From the NCBI GenBank assembly GCA_964549615.1, contig CAZJVP010000015.1, positions 1-14,174 on the forward strand: a stretch of 14,174 bases of DNA. Reading direction: 5' to 3'. The position numbers and the translations under genes were made by a program. This document shows, piece by piece, positions 6,247 to 14,140 of the stretch. The stretch is from an uncultured Thermococci archaeon (GTDB lineage Archaea; CAYQAE01; CAYVLA01). The notes under the pieces were generated by a model that was not told the DNA's origin, did no database searches, and saw only the letters and a program-made list of their open reading frames with translations. Position 1 is the stretch's first letter, and each line of letters begins with the position of its first letter.

Positions 6247-6290
6247 AGGGTGAGACGGTGCGTCGCAGGGAAGGACAGGGGCATGAGGGC

Positions 6291-8849
6291 ATGTTGAGCG
6301 TCAGGCATGGGCTTCTCCTTGGGCTCGCCTTGCTTGCCTTTCAGGTCGCGGCCGGTCAACCGAGCCAAGTGCACATGACTTGGCAATCGGATCCGAGATA
6401 CTCGATCACGATAAGCTGGAGGACCTCGTCGGAGCGTCCTAGCGTTGTGGAGTACGGAACCGACGCAAGCTACGGATTCAGGGCGGAGGGGATCCCCGCG
6501 CAGGTTCACCACGTAATGCTGCAGGGCCTAAGGCCTGGGACCCTCTATCACTTCAGATGTGGTTCGGAGGGTGAATGGAGCCAGGACCTCACCTTTCAGA
6601 CCGCGCCGGAGGACGAGAGCCAGGGCTTCACCTTCGTGGCGCTCGGGGACTCGCGGACGAACTGGGACGTCTGGGGCAGGTGCGCCGAGGCGGTTCTCCA
6701 GACCGATCCGGCCTTCGTCCTGCACACGGGCGATCTTGTCGAAAACGGAGGCCAGCAGTCGGAATGGGACATCTGGTTTCTGAAGGCCGAGTCGCTGCTG
6801 AGCAGGAAGGTCATGATGCCGGTCCTCGGCAACCACGAGGGGAACCATCCCAAGTACTACGAACAGTTTGCGCTGCCGAACGTGGAGGACTGGTACTCGT
6901 TCGACTACGGCTGCGTGCACTTCATCGGACTTTCGACCGAGAAGTCGATGACCGGGGCGCAGCGGGCCTGGCTGGAGCAGGATCTTGCCTCGACGAACGC
7001 GACTTGGAAGATCGTCTTCTACCACAGGCCCATGTACAGCTCGGACGGCCATGGCTGCGAGAGACCGGTCTACGAGGCATGGGGGGATCTGCTCGACAAG
7101 TACCACGTCGACTTGGTGTTCAACGGCCATGACCACACGTACGAGAGGACCTATCCGATGTACGGCGACTGGTTGGCTGATTCGCCTGAGAACGGGACGA
7201 TACACATCGTAACGGGGGGTGCTGGCGCGCCGCTTGGCCGTCTGGTGTCCCGGGGGCCGTGGTGCGCGTCGTTCGTGCCTTATTACCACTTCCTCTTGGT
7301 CACGGTCAACCAGACCGACCTAAAGGTCGAGGCAAGGTTCTTCAACCAGACGGTCTTCGACGAGCTGCGAATTTCCAAGGCAAGGCTTCCGGACCTCAGG
7401 GCGGAGTCGGCTGTAACAGTTCCTGCGTTTCCGGTTCCAGGCGTGGACGCCCAGATCATGCTCACCATGGTGAACTCTGGGAAGAGCGCCAGCGGGGAAT
7501 GTGGCGTGGAGATCGCGATCGACGGCGCGTTGCTGTCCGTCGTCCGGCTCGGGCCGATTCCTGCAGGGGGGTCCGTGCCCATTAACCTGGTTTGGCGCCC
7601 GACGATCAGCGGGGTCCACAACCTCACCGTCAGGGTCGACCCTGACGGCGAGGTGGGTGAGGGACTGGGGGAGGCCAACAACGAGATGAGCTTGGCCATC
7701 CTCGTGTCGAGCCCGAAGCCGGACCTCTTGGTGGAGAGCGTCGACAGCAGCGCGCTGATGCCGACCTTGGGCGAGACCATCCGGTTCGTGGTTGATCTGA
7801 AGAACAGAGGCACGGCAGCCTCGGGGCCGTTCGGAGTAGAGGTGCGCCTCAACGACGTCGCCCTGAACCACACCGTCTTGCACCAAGGATTGCAGCCCGG
7901 CGAGACCAGGCGGTTGGACTTTTCGTGGCAGGTTTCTTGGGGCGACTGGAACCTCAGCGTCGTACTGGATCCCGAGGGTCGGGTGGACGAGCTTTTCGAG
8001 GACAACAACGTCATGGACGCGGCTTTCCGGTTCAGGGATCTGTGCAAGTGGGGACCGGCGTACCTGCCGCAGGGCTTCGTCAAGGGCGAGCCCGTCATCA
8101 TATACTACAACACATCCGAGGGACGGATACCCCCCGCCTCCAGCACATGCGTGGTCGTGTGGGGCATGAACGGGTGGAAGAAGCCGCCGGCTCAGTTGGC
8201 GCCGCCGGGGACCACGACGCGGACGATGTTCGAGACCCCCATGCAGAGGGTCTCGGGCGATCTGTGGTTTGCGGTTCTGCCGACCGCGGAGGGCATGGAC
8301 TGGATCGACCTGAAATTCGAGGATCGCCAGATGCTCGCCAAGGTCTTCGACGACAACAACGGCTCCAACTGGATCGTTCCCTGCGCGGATTGGGTAAGGT
8401 CAAGGCTCGACGAGTTCCTGCTAGCCATATCGGACGCAGAGGCCGTGGGCGTTGATGTGGCCGGCTACCGCGCACTGGCCGAACAGGCTAGCCTTACCCT
8501 CTCGGCGGGGCGGCCCACCGAGGCCCTGAAGCTGATCCACGATGCGGTCGATCGATGCCGGTCGGATGAGTGCCGGGCCCTCTTCGAGACGGCGAGTCGC
8601 GAGTACCTTGAGGCCGTGGCGGAGGGATTGGAAATCCCAAGGGCCCAAAGCTACCTGAACGCCGCGAGGGCTCAGATGGAATCTGGCAACTTCTCCGGAT
8701 CCAAGCACTGGAGCCTGCTCGTGCTGGGCCTGATCCAGGAGGCGCGGGCGAAGATCCCGGAAGGTGTTTCCCCCGCGGCCGCCCTGGGGGCTTTGAGTCT
8801 GCTCCTGTGGAGGAAGCGGGCAAGCTGGGGCAGCCGCAGGGAACATTGA
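6291..8849 (+). CDS. Secreted multidomain metallophosphoesterase (purple-acid-phosphatase-like FN3 N-domain + calcineurin-like phosphoesterase + 2 CARDB + CBM-like module + helical stalk + C-terminal anchor)
   Basis: The signal peptide starts at ATG 6291 (MLSVRHGLLLGLALLAFQVAAG). The N-domain has PSQVHMT...ISWRT...VEYG...HHVMLQGLRPGTLYHFRCG. Metal motifs are GDSR, GDLV, GNHE, YHRPMYS and GHDHTYER. The C-terminus is IPE + hydrophobic stretch + RKR. Confidence 0.92.
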   Translation: MLSVRHGLLLGLALLAFQVAAGQPSQVHMTWQSDPRYSITISWRTSSERPSVVEYGTDASYGFRAEGIPAQVHHVMLQGLRPGTLYHFRCGSEGEWSQDLTFQTAPEDESQGFTFVALGDSRTNWDVWGRCAEAVLQTDPAFVLHTGDLVENGGQQSEWDIWFLKAESLLSRKVMMPVLGNHEGNHPKYYEQFALPNVEDWYSFDYGCVHFIGLSTEKSMTGAQRAWLEQDLASTNATWKIVFYHRPMYSSDGHGCERPVYEAWGDLLDKYHVDLVFNGHDHTYERTYPMYGDWLADSPENGTIHIVTGGAGAPLGRLVSRGPWCASFVPYYHFLLVTVNQTDLKVEARFFNQTVFDELRISKARLPDLRAESAVTVPAFPVPGVDAQIMLTMVNSGKSASGECGVEIAIDGALLSVVRLGPIPAGGSVPINLVWRPTISGVHNLTVRVDPDGEVGEGLGEANNEMSLAILVSSPKPDLLVESVDSSALMPTLGETIRFVVDLKNRGTAASGPFGVEVRLNDVALNHTVLHQGLQPGETRRLDFSWQVSWGDWNLSVVLDPEGRVDELFEDNNVMDAAFRFRDLCKWGPAYLPQGFVKGEPVIIYYNTSEGRIPPASSTCVVVWGMNGWKKPPAQLAPPGTTTRTMFETPMQRVSGDLWFAVLPTAEGMDWIDLKFEDRQMLAKVFDDNNGSNWIVPCADWVRSRLDEFLLAISDAEAVGVDVAGYRALAEQASLTLSAGRPTEALKLIHDAVDRCRSDECRALFETASREYLEAVAEGLEIPRAQSYLNAARAQMESGNFSGSKHWSLLVLGLIQEARAKIPEGVSPAAALGALSLLLWRKRASWGSRREH
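7386..8033 (+). repeat. Two tandem CARDB (Ig-like) domains within the phosphoesterase
   Basis: Unit 1 (from 7386): LPDL...VNSG..ASG...W...G..NLTVRVDPDGEVGE...NN. Unit 2 (from 7716): KPDL...KNRG..ASG...W...G..NLSVVLDPEGRVDE..EDNN. Confidence 0.85.
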
Positions 8850-8890: not shown

Positions 8891-9421
8891 ATGGCGCGCC
8901 TCGAGGAAGCAGAGCGGATCTTCAGGCACATCCGCAGGAGATACGACAAGAACCCCGAGGACGAGTGGCGCATACTGGTTGGGCGGGATTCGGCGGGGCG
9001 GCTCACGCAGCTCATCGCGGATTCGACTCACACCTGGCAGATCAAGGGCGAGATGGTCGCTCCCGGAAGGTTTGCCGGGGTCGGCTTGAGGTTGCCGGGA
9101 GTCAGGAGCGAGGATTTGCTTGAGATCGAGGGCCCCTTCTATGGCTGGAGGCCGCTGACCAGAAGCATGGTGATGGAGATCCTGAGGGGTGGCTCCGGCC
9201 CGAGTTTGGAGAGCCTGATATCGATCCCCCGTGCCTCAACGAAGATGGCCACCAAGCTTGCCCTATCCACCGGTGCCCTCATCGAGGGGCCGATAGTCCA
9301 TTCAGCTAGCCCGATCTCGGCGATATCGAGCAAGCAGGAGGATCTTGAAGTCATGTTGAACAGGGGCCTGGACAAGCTCATGCTTAGGAAATTCCCGGAG
9401 ACCCGCTACGCTTATGGTTGA
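8891..9421 (+). CDS. Conserved archaeal hypothetical protein (176 aa)
   Basis: The ORF fills the gap between neighbours and has a clean ATG. The motifs NPEDEWRILVGRD and SSKQEDLE..L...LDKL....FPE....YG recall an uncharacterised euryarchaeal family (from memory, not verified). Confidence 0.8.
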   Translation: MARLEEAERIFRHIRRRYDKNPEDEWRILVGRDSAGRLTQLIADSTHTWQIKGEMVAPGRFAGVGLRLPGVRSEDLLEIEGPFYGWRPLTRSMVMEILRGGSGPSLESLISIPRASTKMATKLALSTGALIEGPIVHSASPISAISSKQEDLEVMLNRGLDKLMLRKFPETRYAYG

Positions 9422-9479
9422 AACCTCGCGGCCCCAGACACGCGTCATACATTTCAATCCCTAATGAGCGTGGGATACG

Positions 9480-10544
9480 TTGAAGAACAAGCATCTGGAC
9501 GTGCGGTCGCTGGACGGGTCTACGGAGGTCTACGCAGCGAGGGAGCGAGGCTACTTCCCAGTAGTTCTGAGGACCGGTCCAAGAGAGGCGGTCGCGGCCA
9601 TCCGGGGAGGCGCGGGACACATCGGGATCCGAGGCAGACTGGAGATCATCCGCACGGCGGACTCGGGCCGGACCTGGTCCCAGCCCGTGGTCGCCGCCCA
9701 GAGCGAGTGGGATGACCGGAACCCGTCGTTGGGCATGGCCTTGGACGGCACGATGGTCCTTGCTTACCACCACCAGGGCAACTATGACGAGAAGGGTGAC
9801 CTAAGAGCGGGCGACAAGGTGGACACCCTGATCCGGACATCGAAAGACTTGGGCAGGACTTGGAGCGAGGCATTCCCACTCAGCTTCACGCCGCTGAGAG
9901 GCCGATCCCCCTATGGCAGGATGCTGAACCTGGGTAAGGACCTCCTGATGCCGATCTACGGGGCTCCCCCTGGAAGGCCTCTGACCGAGCGCTCGGCGAG
10001 CTACATACTTCGGTCAAGGGACGGAAGGACCTGGGGGGACGTCTCCCTGGTGGCGCGGGAGATGAACGAGACCTCCTTGATCTGCCTTCCGGACGGGGAA
10101 CTCCTCGCACTGATGAGGTCCGAGAAGCACCACCCGGACTCGTTGTATTCGGCCCGATCTCCCGACGGCGGCCGGACCTGGTCGGACCCCGTCAGGGTCA
10201 CGGCGGATTCCGAGCATCCAGGCGATGTCATCCTTCTTTCGAACGGTTGGCTTCTCTTGGCCTTCGGGCACAGGCACCCGCCCTTCGGCGTTCAGGGGCT
10301 CGTCAGCACCGACTGGGGCCGGACCTGGGCCGAGGACTTCAGGCTCATCTTCACCGACGACCGGCCGGGCTCCGACTGCGGCTATCCCAGCCTTGCGGTC
10401 TTCGCGGACGGGACCTTGCTGGTGATGTACTACTCGGCCGGGGATCACATGGATTCCCGCAGGCTTGACGGTGCCTTCGCGAAGGCCCTCCTTTTCGATG
10501 AGGACGAGTTGATAGCTGCACTTCGGAAAGGCGGTCTCAAGTAG
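9480..10544 (+). CDS. BNR/Asp-box repeat sialidase-fold (GH33-like) beta-propeller protein, apparently cytoplasmic
   Basis: Five Asp-boxes: TADSGRTW, SKDLGRTW, SRDGRTW, SPDGGRTW and STDWGRTW. It also has DDRNP, NETS, LMRSE and DCGYPS motifs. TTG start; no signal peptide. Confidence 0.9.
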   Translation: MKNKHLDVRSLDGSTEVYAARERGYFPVVLRTGPREAVAAIRGGAGHIGIRGRLEIIRTADSGRTWSQPVVAAQSEWDDRNPSLGMALDGTMVLAYHHQGNYDEKGDLRAGDKVDTLIRTSKDLGRTWSEAFPLSFTPLRGRSPYGRMLNLGKDLLMPIYGAPPGRPLTERSASYILRSRDGRTWGDVSLVAREMNETSLICLPDGELLALMRSEKHHPDSLYSARSPDGGRTWSDPVRVTADSEHPGDVILLSNGWLLLAFGHRHPPFGVQGLVSTDWGRTWAEDFRLIFTDDRPGSDCGYPSLAVFADGTLLVMYYSAGDHMDSRRLDGAFAKALLFDEDELIAALRKGGLK

Positions 10545-10549
10545 CTGGG

Positions 10550-10595
10550 GCATCCCTCGGCGGATGCAAGGCTGGCCCGGATCTGAAGATCGGGC
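10550..10595. terminator. Two adjacent GC hairpins between convergent genes
   Basis: GCATCC-ctcggc-GGATGC (10550..10567) and GCCC-g-GATCT-ga-AGATC-GGGC (10575..10595). There is no U-tract, so terminator function is uncertain. Confidence 0.35.
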
Positions 10596-10596
10596 A

Positions 10597-12681
10597 TCAG
10601 GCAAGGACTATCCTGTTCATCTGCCCGTGGGTGCCTATCTCCTCCATGAGCTCACGGTTATGGGTGACTATGAGGACCTGGGCTACCGTCCGCAACCCCG
10701 CGATCGTCCGAGCAAGGGCACGGACGTTAGCCTCGTCGAGGTACTCGGTCGGTTCGTCCAGTATCAGGAAGCTGGGGACGCGTTGGGCTTCGGATCCCTG
10801 GGGCCCGCCGGGCATCTTCTGCGCAACGTGGGAGAGCGCGATCCGAAGGGCTAGCCCGGCCATCACCCTCTCGCCGACCGATAGCGCCCTCGAGGGAAGC
10901 TGGGCGCCCGACTCCGTCTCGGCGATGACGTCGTAGTCCTGCGTGAGTTCGATGCGTTTGATCATCCCGCCTGAGTAGATGCTGGAAAAGAGGGCCTGGG
11001 TCTCGGCGGCAACAGATGGAAGGATCTTCCTGCGCGCATAGGGCCCGATGTTGTTGAACGCCCATCTGATGTCCCTGATCATCTCAAGCTCTCTTGCCAG
11101 GCGCGCGTGCTTCTCCTCCGCGGCTTTGAGTGCGGCCTTCTTCATCTGCTGTTCGGCCAGCCTCTCCATGAGCACGGGGATCTCCGCCTCCAGCCTCTGC
11201 AGGATCTGTTTGTTGGCAAGGTACCGTCCCTTGGCCTCGGCCAAGGCCTGGTCGGGTCCGGCGGCGGTGGGGACGGTCCTCTCCAGCTCCTGGAGGAGCT
11301 GGGTCTCCCTCTCAAGGGCCTTCTCCAGTTCCCTCTTCTGCTGGACATATGATCCGAGCTCGGCCTCGAGCTCCTCCTTGGATACCTTTAGGCCCGAGTT
11401 CTGCGCCTCGGCGTCCGAGATCTCCTTGGCTAGGTCCTCGAGCTGGGCGCGCAGCCTTGCCGCGCGGGATTTGGAGGCCTCGTCGGATTGCTCGAACCTG
11501 CGGAGATCGATTCTGCGCTTCTCGATGGCCTCTTGGAGTTCCCTGATCTTGGCGTCCAACGCCCTTCGGGTCTCCCTTGCATGCTCGGGGAGGAGTTCGG
11601 ACCCGCATATGGGACAGACCGTCTGCCCCTTTGCCTCCATCTGCGCGAAGGACGTGATGAGGGCCTTGCGGGACTCAAGCTCAGCTTCAAGTCTGAGGAC
11701 CTCGGATTTGAGCTCCTCCAGAACGGCTTGCCCCCTCGCTATCTCCTCGTCCACCCTCGAGATCCTGTCCATGAGTGCCTTCTGCTCGTCCTTCAGCGAG
11801 TCGATCCTTGTCTCCCGGCGCCTCAGCTCGGCTTCGATCTCCAGCAGCCTGTCGTTGAGGGATTCCGTCTTCTGCTCCAGTTGGAGGAGTTGATCCCTCA
11901 TGTTCTGCACTTTCTCGGACTGGGCGGCCTTTGATCGCTCTAGCTGGATGAGGTCCCCTGCAGGTTCGGCCACCCCCGCCAGGGCCCCGAGCTTCTTCTC
12001 CGCCTCACGGATCTCGCCTTCGATCCTGATCTTCTCCTCCATGCGTTGCGAGAGTTCCGAAGAGACGGAGAGAAGGTTGTCCAGCTCGGCCTTCGCCCTG
12101 ATCAGTTCCTCCCTCGCCAAGACGGCCTGCTTCTCCAGGTCGGACTCGGCCTTCCTCAGGTCCCTCCAGGCGTCCTCGAAGACCCCAAAGCCGATCATGC
12201 GGTCGATCTCGCGCTCCCTCTCCTTGCCTGCTTCAAGCAGTGCCCTGATCTCGCCCTGCCTGATGTAGCAGGAATTGCTGTAGGAGCTGTGGCTGAGCCC
12301 CACCAGCCTCAAGATCTCCTCGTCGACCTTGGCCTTTCTGTTTGAGATCTCGACCCCGTCCTTGGTGAGACGGGCGGCGGCCGTTGAGGCACCCGTCTGG
12401 CCCTTGCTGATCTGCCGGAAGACGGTCAGAGCCCTGGTCTGGGAGTCCTCCTGCACGCTGAAGCTCAACGACACGGAGGCAAGGCTTTCGCCCAACCTTA
12501 CGAGAGGCTCAAGGCCAGGACGTCCCGAAACCGAGCCGTAAAAAGCGAACTCGATCGCCTCAAGGATTGAGGTCTTTCCGGAGCCGTTTGGGCCCTGCAG
12601 CACGTTTATCCCGGGTGAGAGATCGATCTCCTTGGCTTTGAAGTTCTTGAAGTTCTGGAGCGAAAGGTGGGTGAGGATCAT
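10597..12681 (-). CDS. rad50: Rad50/SbcC-like SMC-family ATPase with zinc hook (694 aa)
   Basis: N-terminal LQNFKNF, Walker A GPNGSGKTS, Q-loop YIRQGEI, long coiled coils and a central CPICG hook. The C-head has the signature LSVGER, Walker B/D-loop LILDEPTEYLD and H-loop IVTHN. Orthology to canonical Rad50 is uncertain because no mre11 is adjacent. Confidence 0.88.
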   Translation of the reverse strand: MILTHLSLQNFKNFKAKEIDLSPGINVLQGPNGSGKTSILEAIEFAFYGSVSGRPGLEPLVRLGESLASVSLSFSVQEDSQTRALTVFRQISKGQTGASTAAARLTKDGVEISNRKAKVDEEILRLVGLSHSSYSNSCYIRQGEIRALLEAGKEREREIDRMIGFGVFEDAWRDLRKAESDLEKQAVLAREELIRAKAELDNLLSVSSELSQRMEEKIRIEGEIREAEKKLGALAGVAEPAGDLIQLERSKAAQSEKVQNMRDQLLQLEQKTESLNDRLLEIEAELRRRETRIDSLKDEQKALMDRISRVDEEIARGQAVLEELKSEVLRLEAELESRKALITSFAQMEAKGQTVCPICGSELLPEHARETRRALDAKIRELQEAIEKRRIDLRRFEQSDEASKSRAARLRAQLEDLAKEISDAEAQNSGLKVSKEELEAELGSYVQQKRELEKALERETQLLQELERTVPTAAGPDQALAEAKGRYLANKQILQRLEAEIPVLMERLAEQQMKKAALKAAEEKHARLARELEMIRDIRWAFNNIGPYARRKILPSVAAETQALFSSIYSGGMIKRIELTQDYDVIAETESGAQLPSRALSVGERVMAGLALRIALSHVAQKMPGGPQGSEAQRVPSFLILDEPTEYLDEANVRALARTIAGLRTVAQVLIVTHNRELMEEIGTHGQMNRIVLA

Positions 12682-12950
12682 GCCCCCTCCTCTCCCCTCT
12701 TGATGCTCTGCTTCAGCGACTCAAGCAGCTTGTCCTCGATATCCGGTTCCTTCACGTACGGTGGCTTCCTCGGCGTGGGTCCTGCCGTTTCTGCCTCCTT
12801 CCTCTTGGCCTCGCTCTCCATGGCTCCCCTTAGAAGCTTCTTGGCGGCCTCCACGAGGCCGTCAAGCTCCTTGGGCTCGTACTTGGACGAGAAATTCTCC
12901 CTTAGGAAGGACTCCAGAATGGCGTATATGTCCGGGGCTTCCTCGGGCAT
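12678..12950 (-). CDS. Small helical protein (90 aa), translationally coupled to the Rad50-like gene
   Basis: ATG at 12950 (MPEEAPDIYAILESFLRENF...) within ORF 12678..13061, with AGGGAG just upstream and a TATA box about 31 nt upstream. Its TGA overlaps the ATPase ATG (ATGA), and a GAGGAGG SD for the ATPase sits in its last codons. It shows amphipathic helical patterning. Confidence 0.8.
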   Translation of the reverse strand: MPEEAPDIYAILESFLRENFSSKYEPKELDGLVEAAKKLLRGAMESEAKRKEAETAGPTPRKPPYVKEPDIEDKLLESLKQSIKRGEEGA

Positions 12951-12980
12951 GGGCGGCTCCCTAACCTGTGTGTTGTGGGG

Positions 12981-12995
12981 CTTAAAGCCTTTTCC
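12981..12995 (-). promoter_or_regulatory. BRE/TATA promoter of the small-ORF/Rad50-like operon
   Basis: The minus strand reads GGAAAAGGCTTTAAG, a purine-rich BRE followed by TTTAAG. Confidence 0.7.
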
Positions 12996-13060
12996 GGCTT
13001 GTGGTGCTGGGCGCGGGGTGTCTCGGCCTGCGCTCGGCAGTGGGCGGAAAAGCGAGCACA

Positions 13061-14140
13061 CTACTTCCAGTAGCTCTTCACGAGCTCGATGTAGCGGCAG
13101 TAGTTCTTGAACGAGATGTCGCTGGACACGCAGTGGTCGACGCTGGGTATGTATCCGCCGTCCTCAAGCAGGAAAGGCAGCTTCGAGTTAACCTCCTCCT
13201 CCAGCGCCCGGCCGCCCTTGGCGACCGCCCTCTTGTCTATGTTGCCGATCAGGATCAGCCTGTGCCCGTACTGCTTGCGGAGCTTGACCGCATCCTCGTT
13301 GCTTGCGACCTCGAGCGGATAGAGGCAGTTGACACCTGCCTCGAGGAAGCAGGGCGTGATGGCATCGTTGTTCCCGTCGCTATCCACCATGATGACGTCG
13401 ATGCCATTCTCCCTCAAGAACCGGGTGATCTTCTTGTAACCCGGGAGCATGAACTTCCGCCACTGTGCCGGCGATATGTGGGGTCCGCTGTGATAGGCCA
13501 TGTCCTCCCATATCGTTGCGAAGTCTATCCTCGCCTCGGCTACGGCCTTCCTCGCGACCTCGACCTGGAAGTCCGCAAGGAAGTCGAAGAGCTCCTTGAC
13601 GAAGTCGGGGTAGCGGAACATCATCACGACAAGGCCCTTGAGGCCGATCATGTTCCTAGCGTTGCCGAAAATCCCGGGGAAGCCTATGCCCACCGGGCGG
13701 TCGACCTCCTCGTAGTACTGCATGAGCTCCGGCCCCCAGTTCTTCGGGTACCTTCTCATGTCCGTCGGATCGTAGCGGTCCCGGATCTTCTCGAAGTCCT
13801 CCGGCGTTTTGACGCCGAACTCTGTGAACTGCGGCATGCTTGTGCCGGATTTGAGGGACTTGGCCACCCACCTGAGGCCGGCTCCCTTCGTCTCCGTGAT
13901 CACGTACCTTTCGTCCTCGTACAGCGTCCTGGTGACGTAGCTGGGGATAGGACCGAAGTCCAGCGGCACGCCTTCCCGCTTGTCGAAGCCGAAGTAGTCG
14001 TAGTGGTTAACGTCGTGGCCCAGTCCTTCCCCGCGCCACCGGTTGAGAGTCTCTTGCCAGAAGCCGAGCCATTCATAGAAGGGCGGCCGATCTGTCTCCT
14101 CGAAGTGCATGCATGCGTTGAACCTTTCCCGAGCGTTCAT
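13061..14140 (-). CDS. Uroporphyrinogen decarboxylase / MtaA-CmuA methyltransferase superfamily protein
   Basis: Motifs MNARERF...FEETDRPP, WEDMAYHSGPHISPAQWRKFMLPGYKKI, VDSDGN, LEAGVNCLYPLE, LIGNID and GGYIPSVDHCV are typical of the URO-D-like TIM barrel. It is not a canonical HemE because there is no RQAGRY motif. Confidence 0.9.
   Translation of the reverse strand: MNARERFNACMHFEETDRPPFYEWLGFWQETLNRWRGEGLGHDVNHYDYFGFDKREGVPLDFGPIPSYVTRTLYEDERYVITETKGAGLRWVAKSLKSGTSMPQFTEFGVKTPEDFEKIRDRYDPTDMRRYPKNWGPELMQYYEEVDRPVGIGFPGIFGNARNMIGLKGLVVMMFRYPDFVKELFDFLADFQVEVARKAVAEARIDFATIWEDMAYHSGPHISPAQWRKFMLPGYKKITRFLRENGIDVIMVDSDGNNDAITPCFLEAGVNCLYPLEVASNEDAVKLRKQYGHRLILIGNIDKRAVAKGGRALEEEVNSKLPFLLEDGGYIPSVDHCVSSDISFKNYCRYIELVKSYWK

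Follow-up and report, generated by a model that had tools for sequence, protein, structure and literature searches.

A conserved Brockarchaeota gene pair couples a Rad50-type ATPase to a 90-residue helical protein in the mre11 position

With what does a Rad50-type ATPase work when the place directly before its gene, usually taken by mre11, holds an open reading frame (ORF) of only 90 residues? This question is raised by a gene pair at positions 10597 to 12995 of a 14,174-base stretch of DNA (the window), which is the entire contig C15 of a 3.2-Mb archaeal genome (G000) with a completeness rated at 99.5%. The source records of close homologues of the small protein bear the name Candidatus Brockarchaeota. 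According to the description in PMC7752040, Mre11 grips Rad50 via a C-terminal helix-loop-helix. A reading of the window from its letters (the original prediction) had proposed that the small protein stands in the mre11 position and shows the pattern of this Rad50-binding domain, with no nuclease in the unit. Here, we describe a Rad50 paralogue with a mini-partner in the Mre11 slot that is confined to one uncultured hot-spring family of Brockarchaeota. Our best explanation, to which we give about an even chance, holds that the Mre11-Rad50 operon has a lineage-specific paralogue here, in which the nuclease gene was replaced by, or reduced to, the gene of a 90-residue all-helical protein.

Both genes are located on the reverse strand. 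The small ORF (12678..12950 (-), 90 residues by translation) begins with an ATG at 12950 and ends with a TGA at 12680-12678. It is followed by the gene of a Rad50-type ATP-binding cassette (ABC) ATPase of 694 residues (10597..12681 (-), by translation and Pfam SMC_N), whose ATG (12681-12679) shares bases with this TGA in an ATGA overlap. On the coding strand, an element resembling the TFB recognition element and TATA box (BRE/TATA) of archaea, GGAAAAGGCTTTAAG, is found at 12981..12995 (-), 30 nucleotides before the ATG of the small ORF. The sole conserved block upstream of the small ORF is GAAA..CTTTAAG, located 24-30 nucleotides before the ATG in 5/5 genome loci, and a regular expression for the BRE/TATA-like element matches 7/8 metagenome loci. 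Because of its likeness to the archaeal BRE/TATA promoter consensus, the conserved block fits a promoter, which would give rise to a transcript with little or no leader. Thus the components that the original prediction had assembled into one unit, namely promoter element, 90-residue ORF, ATGA overlap and Rad50-type ATPase with zinc hook, are all present at the positions it had named.

A homologue of the small ORF lies immediately upstream of the ATPase orthologue at all 13 loci having upstream sequence, comprising 5/5 genome loci and 8/8 metagenome loci; a ninth metagenome locus (L052) with only 84 nucleotides upstream was left out of this count. The small ORFs of the eight metagenome loci were recognized by hmmsearch with E-values from 1.5e-47 to 4.5e-23. 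At each of the 13 loci read, the stop of the small ORF and the start of the ATPase gene overlap or abut. The pair is hence conserved in relatives, one of the points on which the original prediction depended. The opposite case, in which relatives would carry a full-length mre11 at this position and the small ORF would be its remnant, was looked for as well, and a full-length mre11 was found at 0 of the 13 orthologous loci. The alignment of the small protein contains 14 invariant columns over 13 sequences with 41-88% identity. The ratio of non-synonymous to synonymous substitution rates (dN/dS) of the small ORF is 0.10 for the closest pair (G000 and locus L014) and 0.16-0.49 for farther pairs with a computable dS, four pairs being too saturated. 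Taken together, these data show that the two genes are conserved as a single unit, coupled in translation and equipped with a promoter-like element of its own.

The distribution of this unit is narrow. In whole-genome searches, the small protein was present in three other genomes of its own family with 44-51% identity, and it was found neither in the single sister-family genome nor in 35 other archaea. A match in one of the searched genomes (G024, E 0.002, within a 420-residue frame) contains two in-frame TAA codons and was taken as chance. A search of genome contigs with the small protein gave L014 as the single true relative. Among 5.8 billion clusters, 10 homologues with lengths of 90-129 residues were detected, and when the family profile was run against 1.84 billion representatives, six true matches of 85-104 residues came up. 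A seventh match of 1191 residues was discarded as spurious, being a Cys-rich repeat protein with DUF285 that shares a repeated short motif only. Gene order around the pair is preserved in 4/4 genomes of one Brockarchaeota family, and the content of guanine and cytosine (GC) is even along the contig (0.56-0.64), for which reasons the pair looks vertically inherited and chromosomal and not like a mobile island. Two hot-spring metagenome DNA runs contain the stretch or part of it, and no RNA run is among those listed.

Judged by its sequence, the larger protein is a Rad50-type ATPase with a zinc hook and intact catalytic motifs, in line with its first description. It matches Pfam SMC_N (E 1.3e-25) and belongs to a family of 15 members with 49-100% identity and lengths of 682-706 residues. 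In all 15 members, the Walker A motif GPNGSGKT (residues 30-37; 12571..12594 (-)) is invariant, as are C356, P357 and C359 of the zinc hook CPIC (residues 356-359; 11605..11616 (-)), L639, L641, D642 and E643 of the Walker B motif LILDE (residues 639-643; 10753..10767 (-)), and Q142 of the Q-loop and H674 of the H-loop. The ABC signature SVGE (residues 601-604; 10870..10881 (-)) has an invariant S601, G603 and E604 and an almost invariant V602. The Pfam model Rad50_zn_hook reaches 22.0 bits, just below its cut-off of 24.3, and SMC_hinge gave no match in Pfam, the zinc hook being in the hinge position. An AlphaFold2 (AF2) model with a mean predicted local distance difference test score (pLDDT) of 81.0 shows a Rad50-type head from which long antiparallel helices (about 168-351 and 365-568) extend and meet at the hook, which forms the apex.

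Rad50 is also the best match of the ATPase both by sequence and by fold, ahead of SMC, RecN, RecF and MukB. Among solved structures, archaeal Rad50 heads come first by sequence with 157 bits (5f3w/3aux) and 121 bits, compared with about 46 bits for SMC proteins. A Foldseek search with the model placed Rad50 structures from Chaetomium and Methanocaldococcus at ranks 1-4 (7zr1, 5dny), after which SMC5/6, MukB and the Lamassu protein LmuB follow, with solved LmuB at rank 14. The NCBIfam equivalog model of Rad50 gives 159.5 bits against a cut-off of 700 bits. This cut-off is not discriminating in these lineages, because the canonical, mre11-linked Rad50 of the same genome is also far below it with 164.4 bits, and a Bathyarchaeia Rad50 obtains 224.5 bits. 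Two NCBIfam models of other archaeal relatives remain below their cut-offs as well, namely that of ASRP (NF045487; 118.1 bits over nearly the full length, cut-off 300 bits) and that of arcadin-4 (NF053563; 115.1 bits, cut-off 860 bits).

Does the genome possess a canonical system beside this pair? On contig C101, a canonical mre11 (444 residues, with Metallophos domain) overlaps a canonical rad50 (890 residues), which answers a point that the original prediction had raised. Three Mre11 queries (the genome's own, one from Bathyarchaeia and an Asgard Mre11-like protein) each match only this locus, and a second Mre11-like nuclease gene was not found with them in this 99.5% complete genome. Since the canonical mre11-rad50 pair is separate on C101, the ATPase of the window is an extra Rad50-type protein. 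It shares just 27% identity with the canonical Rad50, over part of the length. A quick maximum-likelihood tree was built from 58 rows of the SMC superfamily, including 28 canonical archaeal Rad50 rows and leaving out bona fide LmuB. In it, the ATPase family (9 rows) forms a clade with support 100, whose sister, with support 97, is a clade of ATPases of about 430 residues from Asgard archaea. Both clades stand apart from the 28 canonical archaeal Rad50 rows, the genome's own among them. The Asgard proteins are also the best non-orthologous database matches to the ATPase, with about 150 bits. A Bathyarchaeia Rad50 of 696 residues (P0035) had been considered as the nearest outgroup and was dropped, as the tree groups it with the canonical Rad50s.

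In these related operons, the position directly before the ATPase gene belongs to mre11. At 9/9 Asgard loci, an Mre11-like gene of 357-364 residues with nuclease motifs ends at the start of the ATPase gene, two of the nine being cut by contig ends. The 696-residue Bathyarchaeia Rad50 is preceded by an mre11 of 397 residues that overlaps its gene start, and the canonical locus on C101 shows the same arrangement. The small gene occupies the mre11 position of every related operon examined, and the reading of this place as an mre11 slot, already part of the original prediction, is well supported. The claim that no nuclease belongs to the unit also holds: the 90-residue protein is devoid of the Metallophos domain in Pfam, the nuclease and capping domains of Mre11 are not present, and no mre11 was seen at the 13 loci.

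For the small protein, the AF2 model (mean pLDDT 75.7) consists of a helix at residues 8-20, a loop, a helix at 26-55, a disordered stretch at 56-70 which is a Pro-rich linker, and a third helix at 71-89. The helix-loop-helix, linker and following helix recognized earlier from the letters are all seen in this model. One side of helix 1 is a hydrophobic face made up of the four invariant residues I8, I11, L12 and F15, and helix 3 holds the invariant E72, L75, S78 and L79. The protein is net acidic, and acidic residues exceed basic ones in 11/11 members checked. No family of Pfam, NCBIfam or PADLOC matches it. The Foldseek comparison suggested in the original prediction returned nothing from the PDB at E <= 0.001, and VIA-align against 48,161 chains yielded generic helical hairpins only, the best Z of 6.2 being under the level that the tool regards as meaningful for helical models. 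The profile of the small-protein family, searched against PDB sequences, matched just designed helical proteins and p97 fragments (E >= 0.015), and the ESM Atlas provided no usable match.

Is this protein then the Rad50-binding helix-loop-helix of Mre11? When its profile is compared by hhalign with that of Bathyarchaeia Mre11 (48 sequences), residues 15-45 fall on the C-terminal helix-loop-helix region (P 0.0033, score 26.5; P 0.0099 and score 22.7 with trimmed profiles). None of 150 column shuffles attains 22.7 (mean 13.5, maximum 22.4), and the reversed profile scores 12.2. Against the canonical Mre11 of the same genome (C101, 19634-20998 (-)), hhalign gives an 11-residue match in the extreme C-terminal tail (P 0.026-0.043), where KDLYSVAESFY resembles PDIYAILESFL of helix 1. 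Within the 4.19 million residues of the genome's six-frame ORFs, the pattern D-h-[YF]-x-h-x-E-S-F has exactly two occurrences, one in helix 1 and one in this tail, with 0.03 expected from composition for a pattern that is short and was written after both sequences had been seen. For the likeness of the two motifs, chance, mimicry and common descent are all possible readings.

Whether the two proteins bind each other was addressed by complex prediction with the full ATPase and the small protein, each with its own family alignment, alongside three control runs. The interface score ipSAE was 0.60, 0.60 and 0.61, the best of the three controls reached 0.00, and the runs share at least 75% of their contacts with a partner pLDDT of at least 61; the resulting verdict is "weak support". 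In the calibration, 58 of the 80 solved complexes attained the mark, as did 2 of the 110 mismatched pairs, with scores of 0.60 or under coming from only 7 of those 80 and from both mismatches. Besides this score, the conserved translational coupling gives a prior, and on these grounds we consider that the small protein probably binds the ATPase. The ATPase stretch 136-180, which leads from the Q-loop into the coiled coil's base, shows a conservation of 0.89-0.93, compared with 0.92 for Walker A. This is compatible with an interface there, and not diagnostic of one.

A working model for the preferred reading, a lineage-specific paralogue of the Mre11-Rad50 operon, can be sketched as follows. 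The ATPase would have the small protein as its stoichiometric partner, whose conserved amphipathic N-terminal hairpin would be packed on the head-proximal coiled coil in the manner of the Mre11 helix-loop-helix. The flexible linker and the second conserved helix may reach a second site, for which the partner head, another copy of the small protein and a further factor are candidates. Dimerization of the complex would take place via ATP-engaged heads and the zinc hook. In a manner dependent on ATP and the hook, the complex would hold DNA by binding, clamping or tethering and leave it uncut. Its role might be that of a sensor or organizer of DNA ends or DNA bridges rather than that of a resection nuclease. 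From the gene content, we infer that the complex is nuclease-free in vivo. For its mechanistic core, this model relies on where the gene lies and on a profile match and a complex score that are both weak. A bolder version of the same reading, tentative and in our view well short of an even chance, would start from a duplicated or acquired mre11-rad50 operon that kept only the Rad50-binding helices of Mre11. The small subunit would then close or gate the head-proximal coiled coil, perhaps bridging to the second head like a minimal kleisin, and the pair would act as a chromosomal non-nucleolytic tether or clamp. If this version is true, the pair would be an evolutionary intermediate between repair Rad50 and SMC-like organizers.

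A number of observations weigh against the preferred reading, most of them concerning homology to the Rad50-binding domain of Mre11. The probability that hhalign assigns to the Bathyarchaeia Mre11 match is just 4-10%, and 52 of the 150 shuffles likewise land in the C-terminal region of Mre11, so that the landing place alone means little. When the genome's 36,543 six-frame ORFs were searched with a hidden Markov model (HMM) of the Bathyarchaeia Mre11 C-terminus, the small protein was missed; so was the canonical Mre11, the top match being an unrelated periplasmic-binding-type protein. Comparisons by hhalign gave noise with the Mre11-like C-termini of the Asgard sister clade (scores 11.7-13.2), with Mre11 of genome G004, and for the C-terminal helix alone against three Mre11 alignments, and no Mre11 was retrieved in the profile search of 1.84 billion proteins. 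By global alignment, the match in the tail of canonical Mre11 sits after helix 3 of the Rad50-binding region and conflicts with the Bathyarchaeia mapping. The complex score offers just weak support and comes without any docking site. Recruitment of a nuclease in trans, canonical Mre11 included, is compatible with the gene content. Finally, the sister clades are joined by long stems (1.17 and 1.29) in a quick tree, so that long-branch attraction is possible.

On the other hand, the Rad50-binding region is highly divergent even among true Mre11 families, and for this reason a failure to detect Mre11 homology says little. Descent of the small protein from the Mre11 helix-loop-helix is thus weakly supported by the profile data, a plausible origin rather than a demonstrated one. 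The positional argument for a relation to Mre11 is much stronger than the sequence argument. Of the earlier proposal that the first half has the pattern of the Mre11 domain, a profile match above all shuffles (P 0.0033-0.01) can be retained, whereas the probability of 4-10%, the miss by the HMM, the absent similarity to the Asgard proteins and the conflicting mappings speak against it.

Other explanations have to be weighed on the same evidence. The small protein could be a dedicated partner unrelated to Mre11, a newly recruited helical adaptor which displaced mre11 and acts as a kleisin-like neck-cap bridge, as a regulator of the ATPase cycle or as a recruiter of another effector. A protein with no relative beyond its own family in 5.8 billion clusters, 1.84 billion representatives and PDB sequences, with generic helical hairpins as its only fold matches and no likeness to the Mre11-like C-termini of the sister clade, would agree with such an origin, and the layout of hairpin, disordered linker and second helix suits a bridge between two sites. 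We regard this as possible and rather doubtful, as the small gene has the same position and the same overlap with the ATPase start as mre11 in related operons, its profile matches the Rad50-binding region of Mre11 weakly and above shuffles, and failed detection of homology is uninformative for so divergent a region. In another scenario, the ATPase works with canonical Mre11 in trans, and the small protein modulates one or both Rad50 proteins by competing there with the tail of Mre11 or by mimicking it. The pattern D-h-[YF]-x-h-x-E-S-F, confined to helix 1 and the canonical Mre11 tail, and the P of 0.026-0.043 for the 11-residue match would point in this direction. This motif is short and was defined post hoc, the tail follows the stretch that can be aligned with the Rad50-binding helices of Bathyarchaeia, and the tight translational coupling to its own ATPase suggests a dedicated partner; we judge such a modulator to be quite unlikely. 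That the small ORF is no gene at all, being an upstream open frame or a decaying remnant, would agree with its membership in no known family. This is very improbable and already contradicted by the conservation data: the ORF is present at 13/13 loci with a dN/dS of 0.10 and 14 invariant columns over 13 sequences, a promoter element stands at a fixed distance before its ATG, and the predicted fold is confidently helical.

A defence function has to be considered as well. According to PMC12663957, the long type of LmuC in Lamassu systems resembles the SbcC-binding C-terminal domain of SbcD, from which it is proposed to have originated by separation from the nuclease; LmuC lies just before LmuB, and one Lamassu clade that lost the effector domain is reported. 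The pair could accordingly be a Lamassu-like module of an LmuB-type ATPase and an LmuC-type subunit, with its LmuA effector lost or located elsewhere. The PADLOC model of LmuB (PDLC03859) matches the ATPase over the full length with 147 bits, and solved LmuB is among its fold matches at rank 14. This model is not specific, as another SMC-like protein of the genome scores 130 bits, and Rad50 is the best match of the ATPase by sequence and fold. In the sister clade, the ATPase gene is accompanied by that of an Mre11-like nuclease. No effector gene is present at the locus; its neighbours are URO-D-like and BNR genes which recur in relatives, gene order is kept in 4/4 family genomes, unlike a variable defence island, and the GC content is uniform across the contig (0.56-0.64). 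All things considered, we hold a Lamassu-like module to be unlikely.

Lamassu LmuB-LmuC of the long type (PMC12663957) is the closest published parallel, since there too an SMC/Rad50-like ATPase is preceded by a small subunit and the same evolutionary logic applies. Lamassu defends bacteria and includes an LmuA effector. The pair of the window, by contrast, has no effector, belongs to an archaeon and occupies a syntenic place on the chromosome, and solved LmuB is less similar to its ATPase than Rad50 is. The short type of LmuC is described in PMC12663957 as globular and DNA-binding, in contrast to the acidic small protein with its three helices. With canonical archaeal Mre11-Rad50 of Methanocaldococcus jannaschii and Pyrococcus furiosus (5f3w, 3av0, 3qku), the ATPase shares the head motifs, the antiparallel coil and the CxxC hook, and the layout is alike in that the partner gene lies directly upstream and overlaps the ATPase start. 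Here, however, the partner comprises 90 residues without a metallophosphoesterase, the coil is shorter (694 residues for the ATPase compared with 890 for the genome's own Rad50), and the ATPase family forms a separate clade and coexists with the canonical locus.

The short Rad50-like ATPases of Thor-, Hermod- and Promethearchaeota (L032-L040) represent the sister clade with the same operon layout. They combine a 357-364-residue Mre11-like nuclease with a much shorter coil and lack the CxxC hook (7/7 checked), whereas the family of the window has the hook and no nuclease. These Asgard loci merit attention in their own right: ATPases of about 430 residues with a very short coil are encoded at each with a 4-nucleotide overlap with the Mre11-like nuclease gene, and the arrangement looks like a "mini Mre11-Rad50", of which no description was met in a limited literature search.

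Nuclease-free relatives of Rad50 are known from archaea. As described in PMC9389158, ASRP (coalescin ClsN, Sph1/2) are archaeal SMC-superfamily proteins of about 600 residues with a zinc hook and no nuclease partner, distinct from Rad50. The ATPase of the window is instead closest to Rad50, and a small partner gene is not mentioned for ASRP in the relevant part of that paper. For arcadin-4 (Rkd4), an origin from Rad50 is proposed in PMC9389158, so that it is likewise Rad50-derived without a nuclease role. As to SMC-kleisin complexes, these differ from the present pair, in which the ATPase has no SMC hinge and the small protein consists of three helices and no winged helix. The genomic context of arcadin-4 is the crenactin cluster. 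Our limited literature search found no description, for archaea, of a stand-alone protein corresponding to the Rad50-binding domain or of a Rad50 paralogue that has a small partner, and the main text of the Brockarchaeota genome paper does not mention Rad50, Mre11, SMC or "DNA repair".

Two further SMC-like loci of the same genome were noted during this comparison. On contig C2 (about 9384-13985; L009), an SMC-like ATPase of 624 residues reaches 120.8 bits with the ASRP model and 130 bits with the LmuB model; it is followed by a family-less protein of 572 residues and preceded by an HFX_2341_N/Csa3-like plus helix-turn-helix regulator, and may belong to a defence or ASRP-type system. A short SMC of 985 residues with a hinge is encoded on contig C32 (7415-11659; L008), where the two genes after it (254 and 179 residues) are in the position of ScpA/ScpB and have no Pfam match.

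The genes that bound the pair are unrelated to it, in accordance with its earlier description as a self-contained unit. Upstream of the small ORF and on the same strand lies a URO-D/MtaA-like gene (13061-14140 (-), 359 residues, by Pfam/NCBIfam), and a BNR-repeat gene (9480-10544 (+)) is convergent with the ATPase gene. The URO-D-family protein shows a weak likeness to MtaA/CmuA methyltransferases (52 bits, cut-off 235 bits), is 74-85% identical in two relatives and adjoins the pair in 3/4 family genomes. In the Brockarchaeota paper, these archaea are said to lack MtaA, whose role may be filled by an undescribed protein; the URO-D-family gene could be a candidate for this missing function. Farther away (6258-8849 (+)), the window encodes a protein of 863 residues with a purple-acid-phosphatase-type metallophosphoesterase and CARDB domains, which is unrelated to Mre11. 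No other gene of the syntenic block is so poorly conserved: identity is 53% in G001, a genome of the same genus, and the loci of G002 and G003 contain no match.

What would such a pair mean? Its narrow distribution in an uncultured family limits the immediate reach of the finding. Within the archaea, it adds a third kind of nuclease-free Rad50 relative to arcadin-4 and ASRP/coalescin, in this case with a defined small subunit. A complex which arose from Mre11 by loss of the nuclease would be an archaeal parallel to the proposed SbcD origin of Lamassu LmuC. If the partner is the Rad50-binding domain of Mre11, it would give independent support to the route proposed for Lamassu, in which nuclease and binding domain part and the ATPase gains a new role, and would indicate that this route also operates in an archaeal housekeeping context. 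Mre11-Rad50 has been studied as one unit, so that the DNA roles of Rad50, such as clamping, tethering and end sensing, are hard to part from those of the nuclease. A conserved natural complex with the Rad50 motor and hook whose partner is just a helical protein of 90 residues would offer a separation-of-function system that is ready to use.

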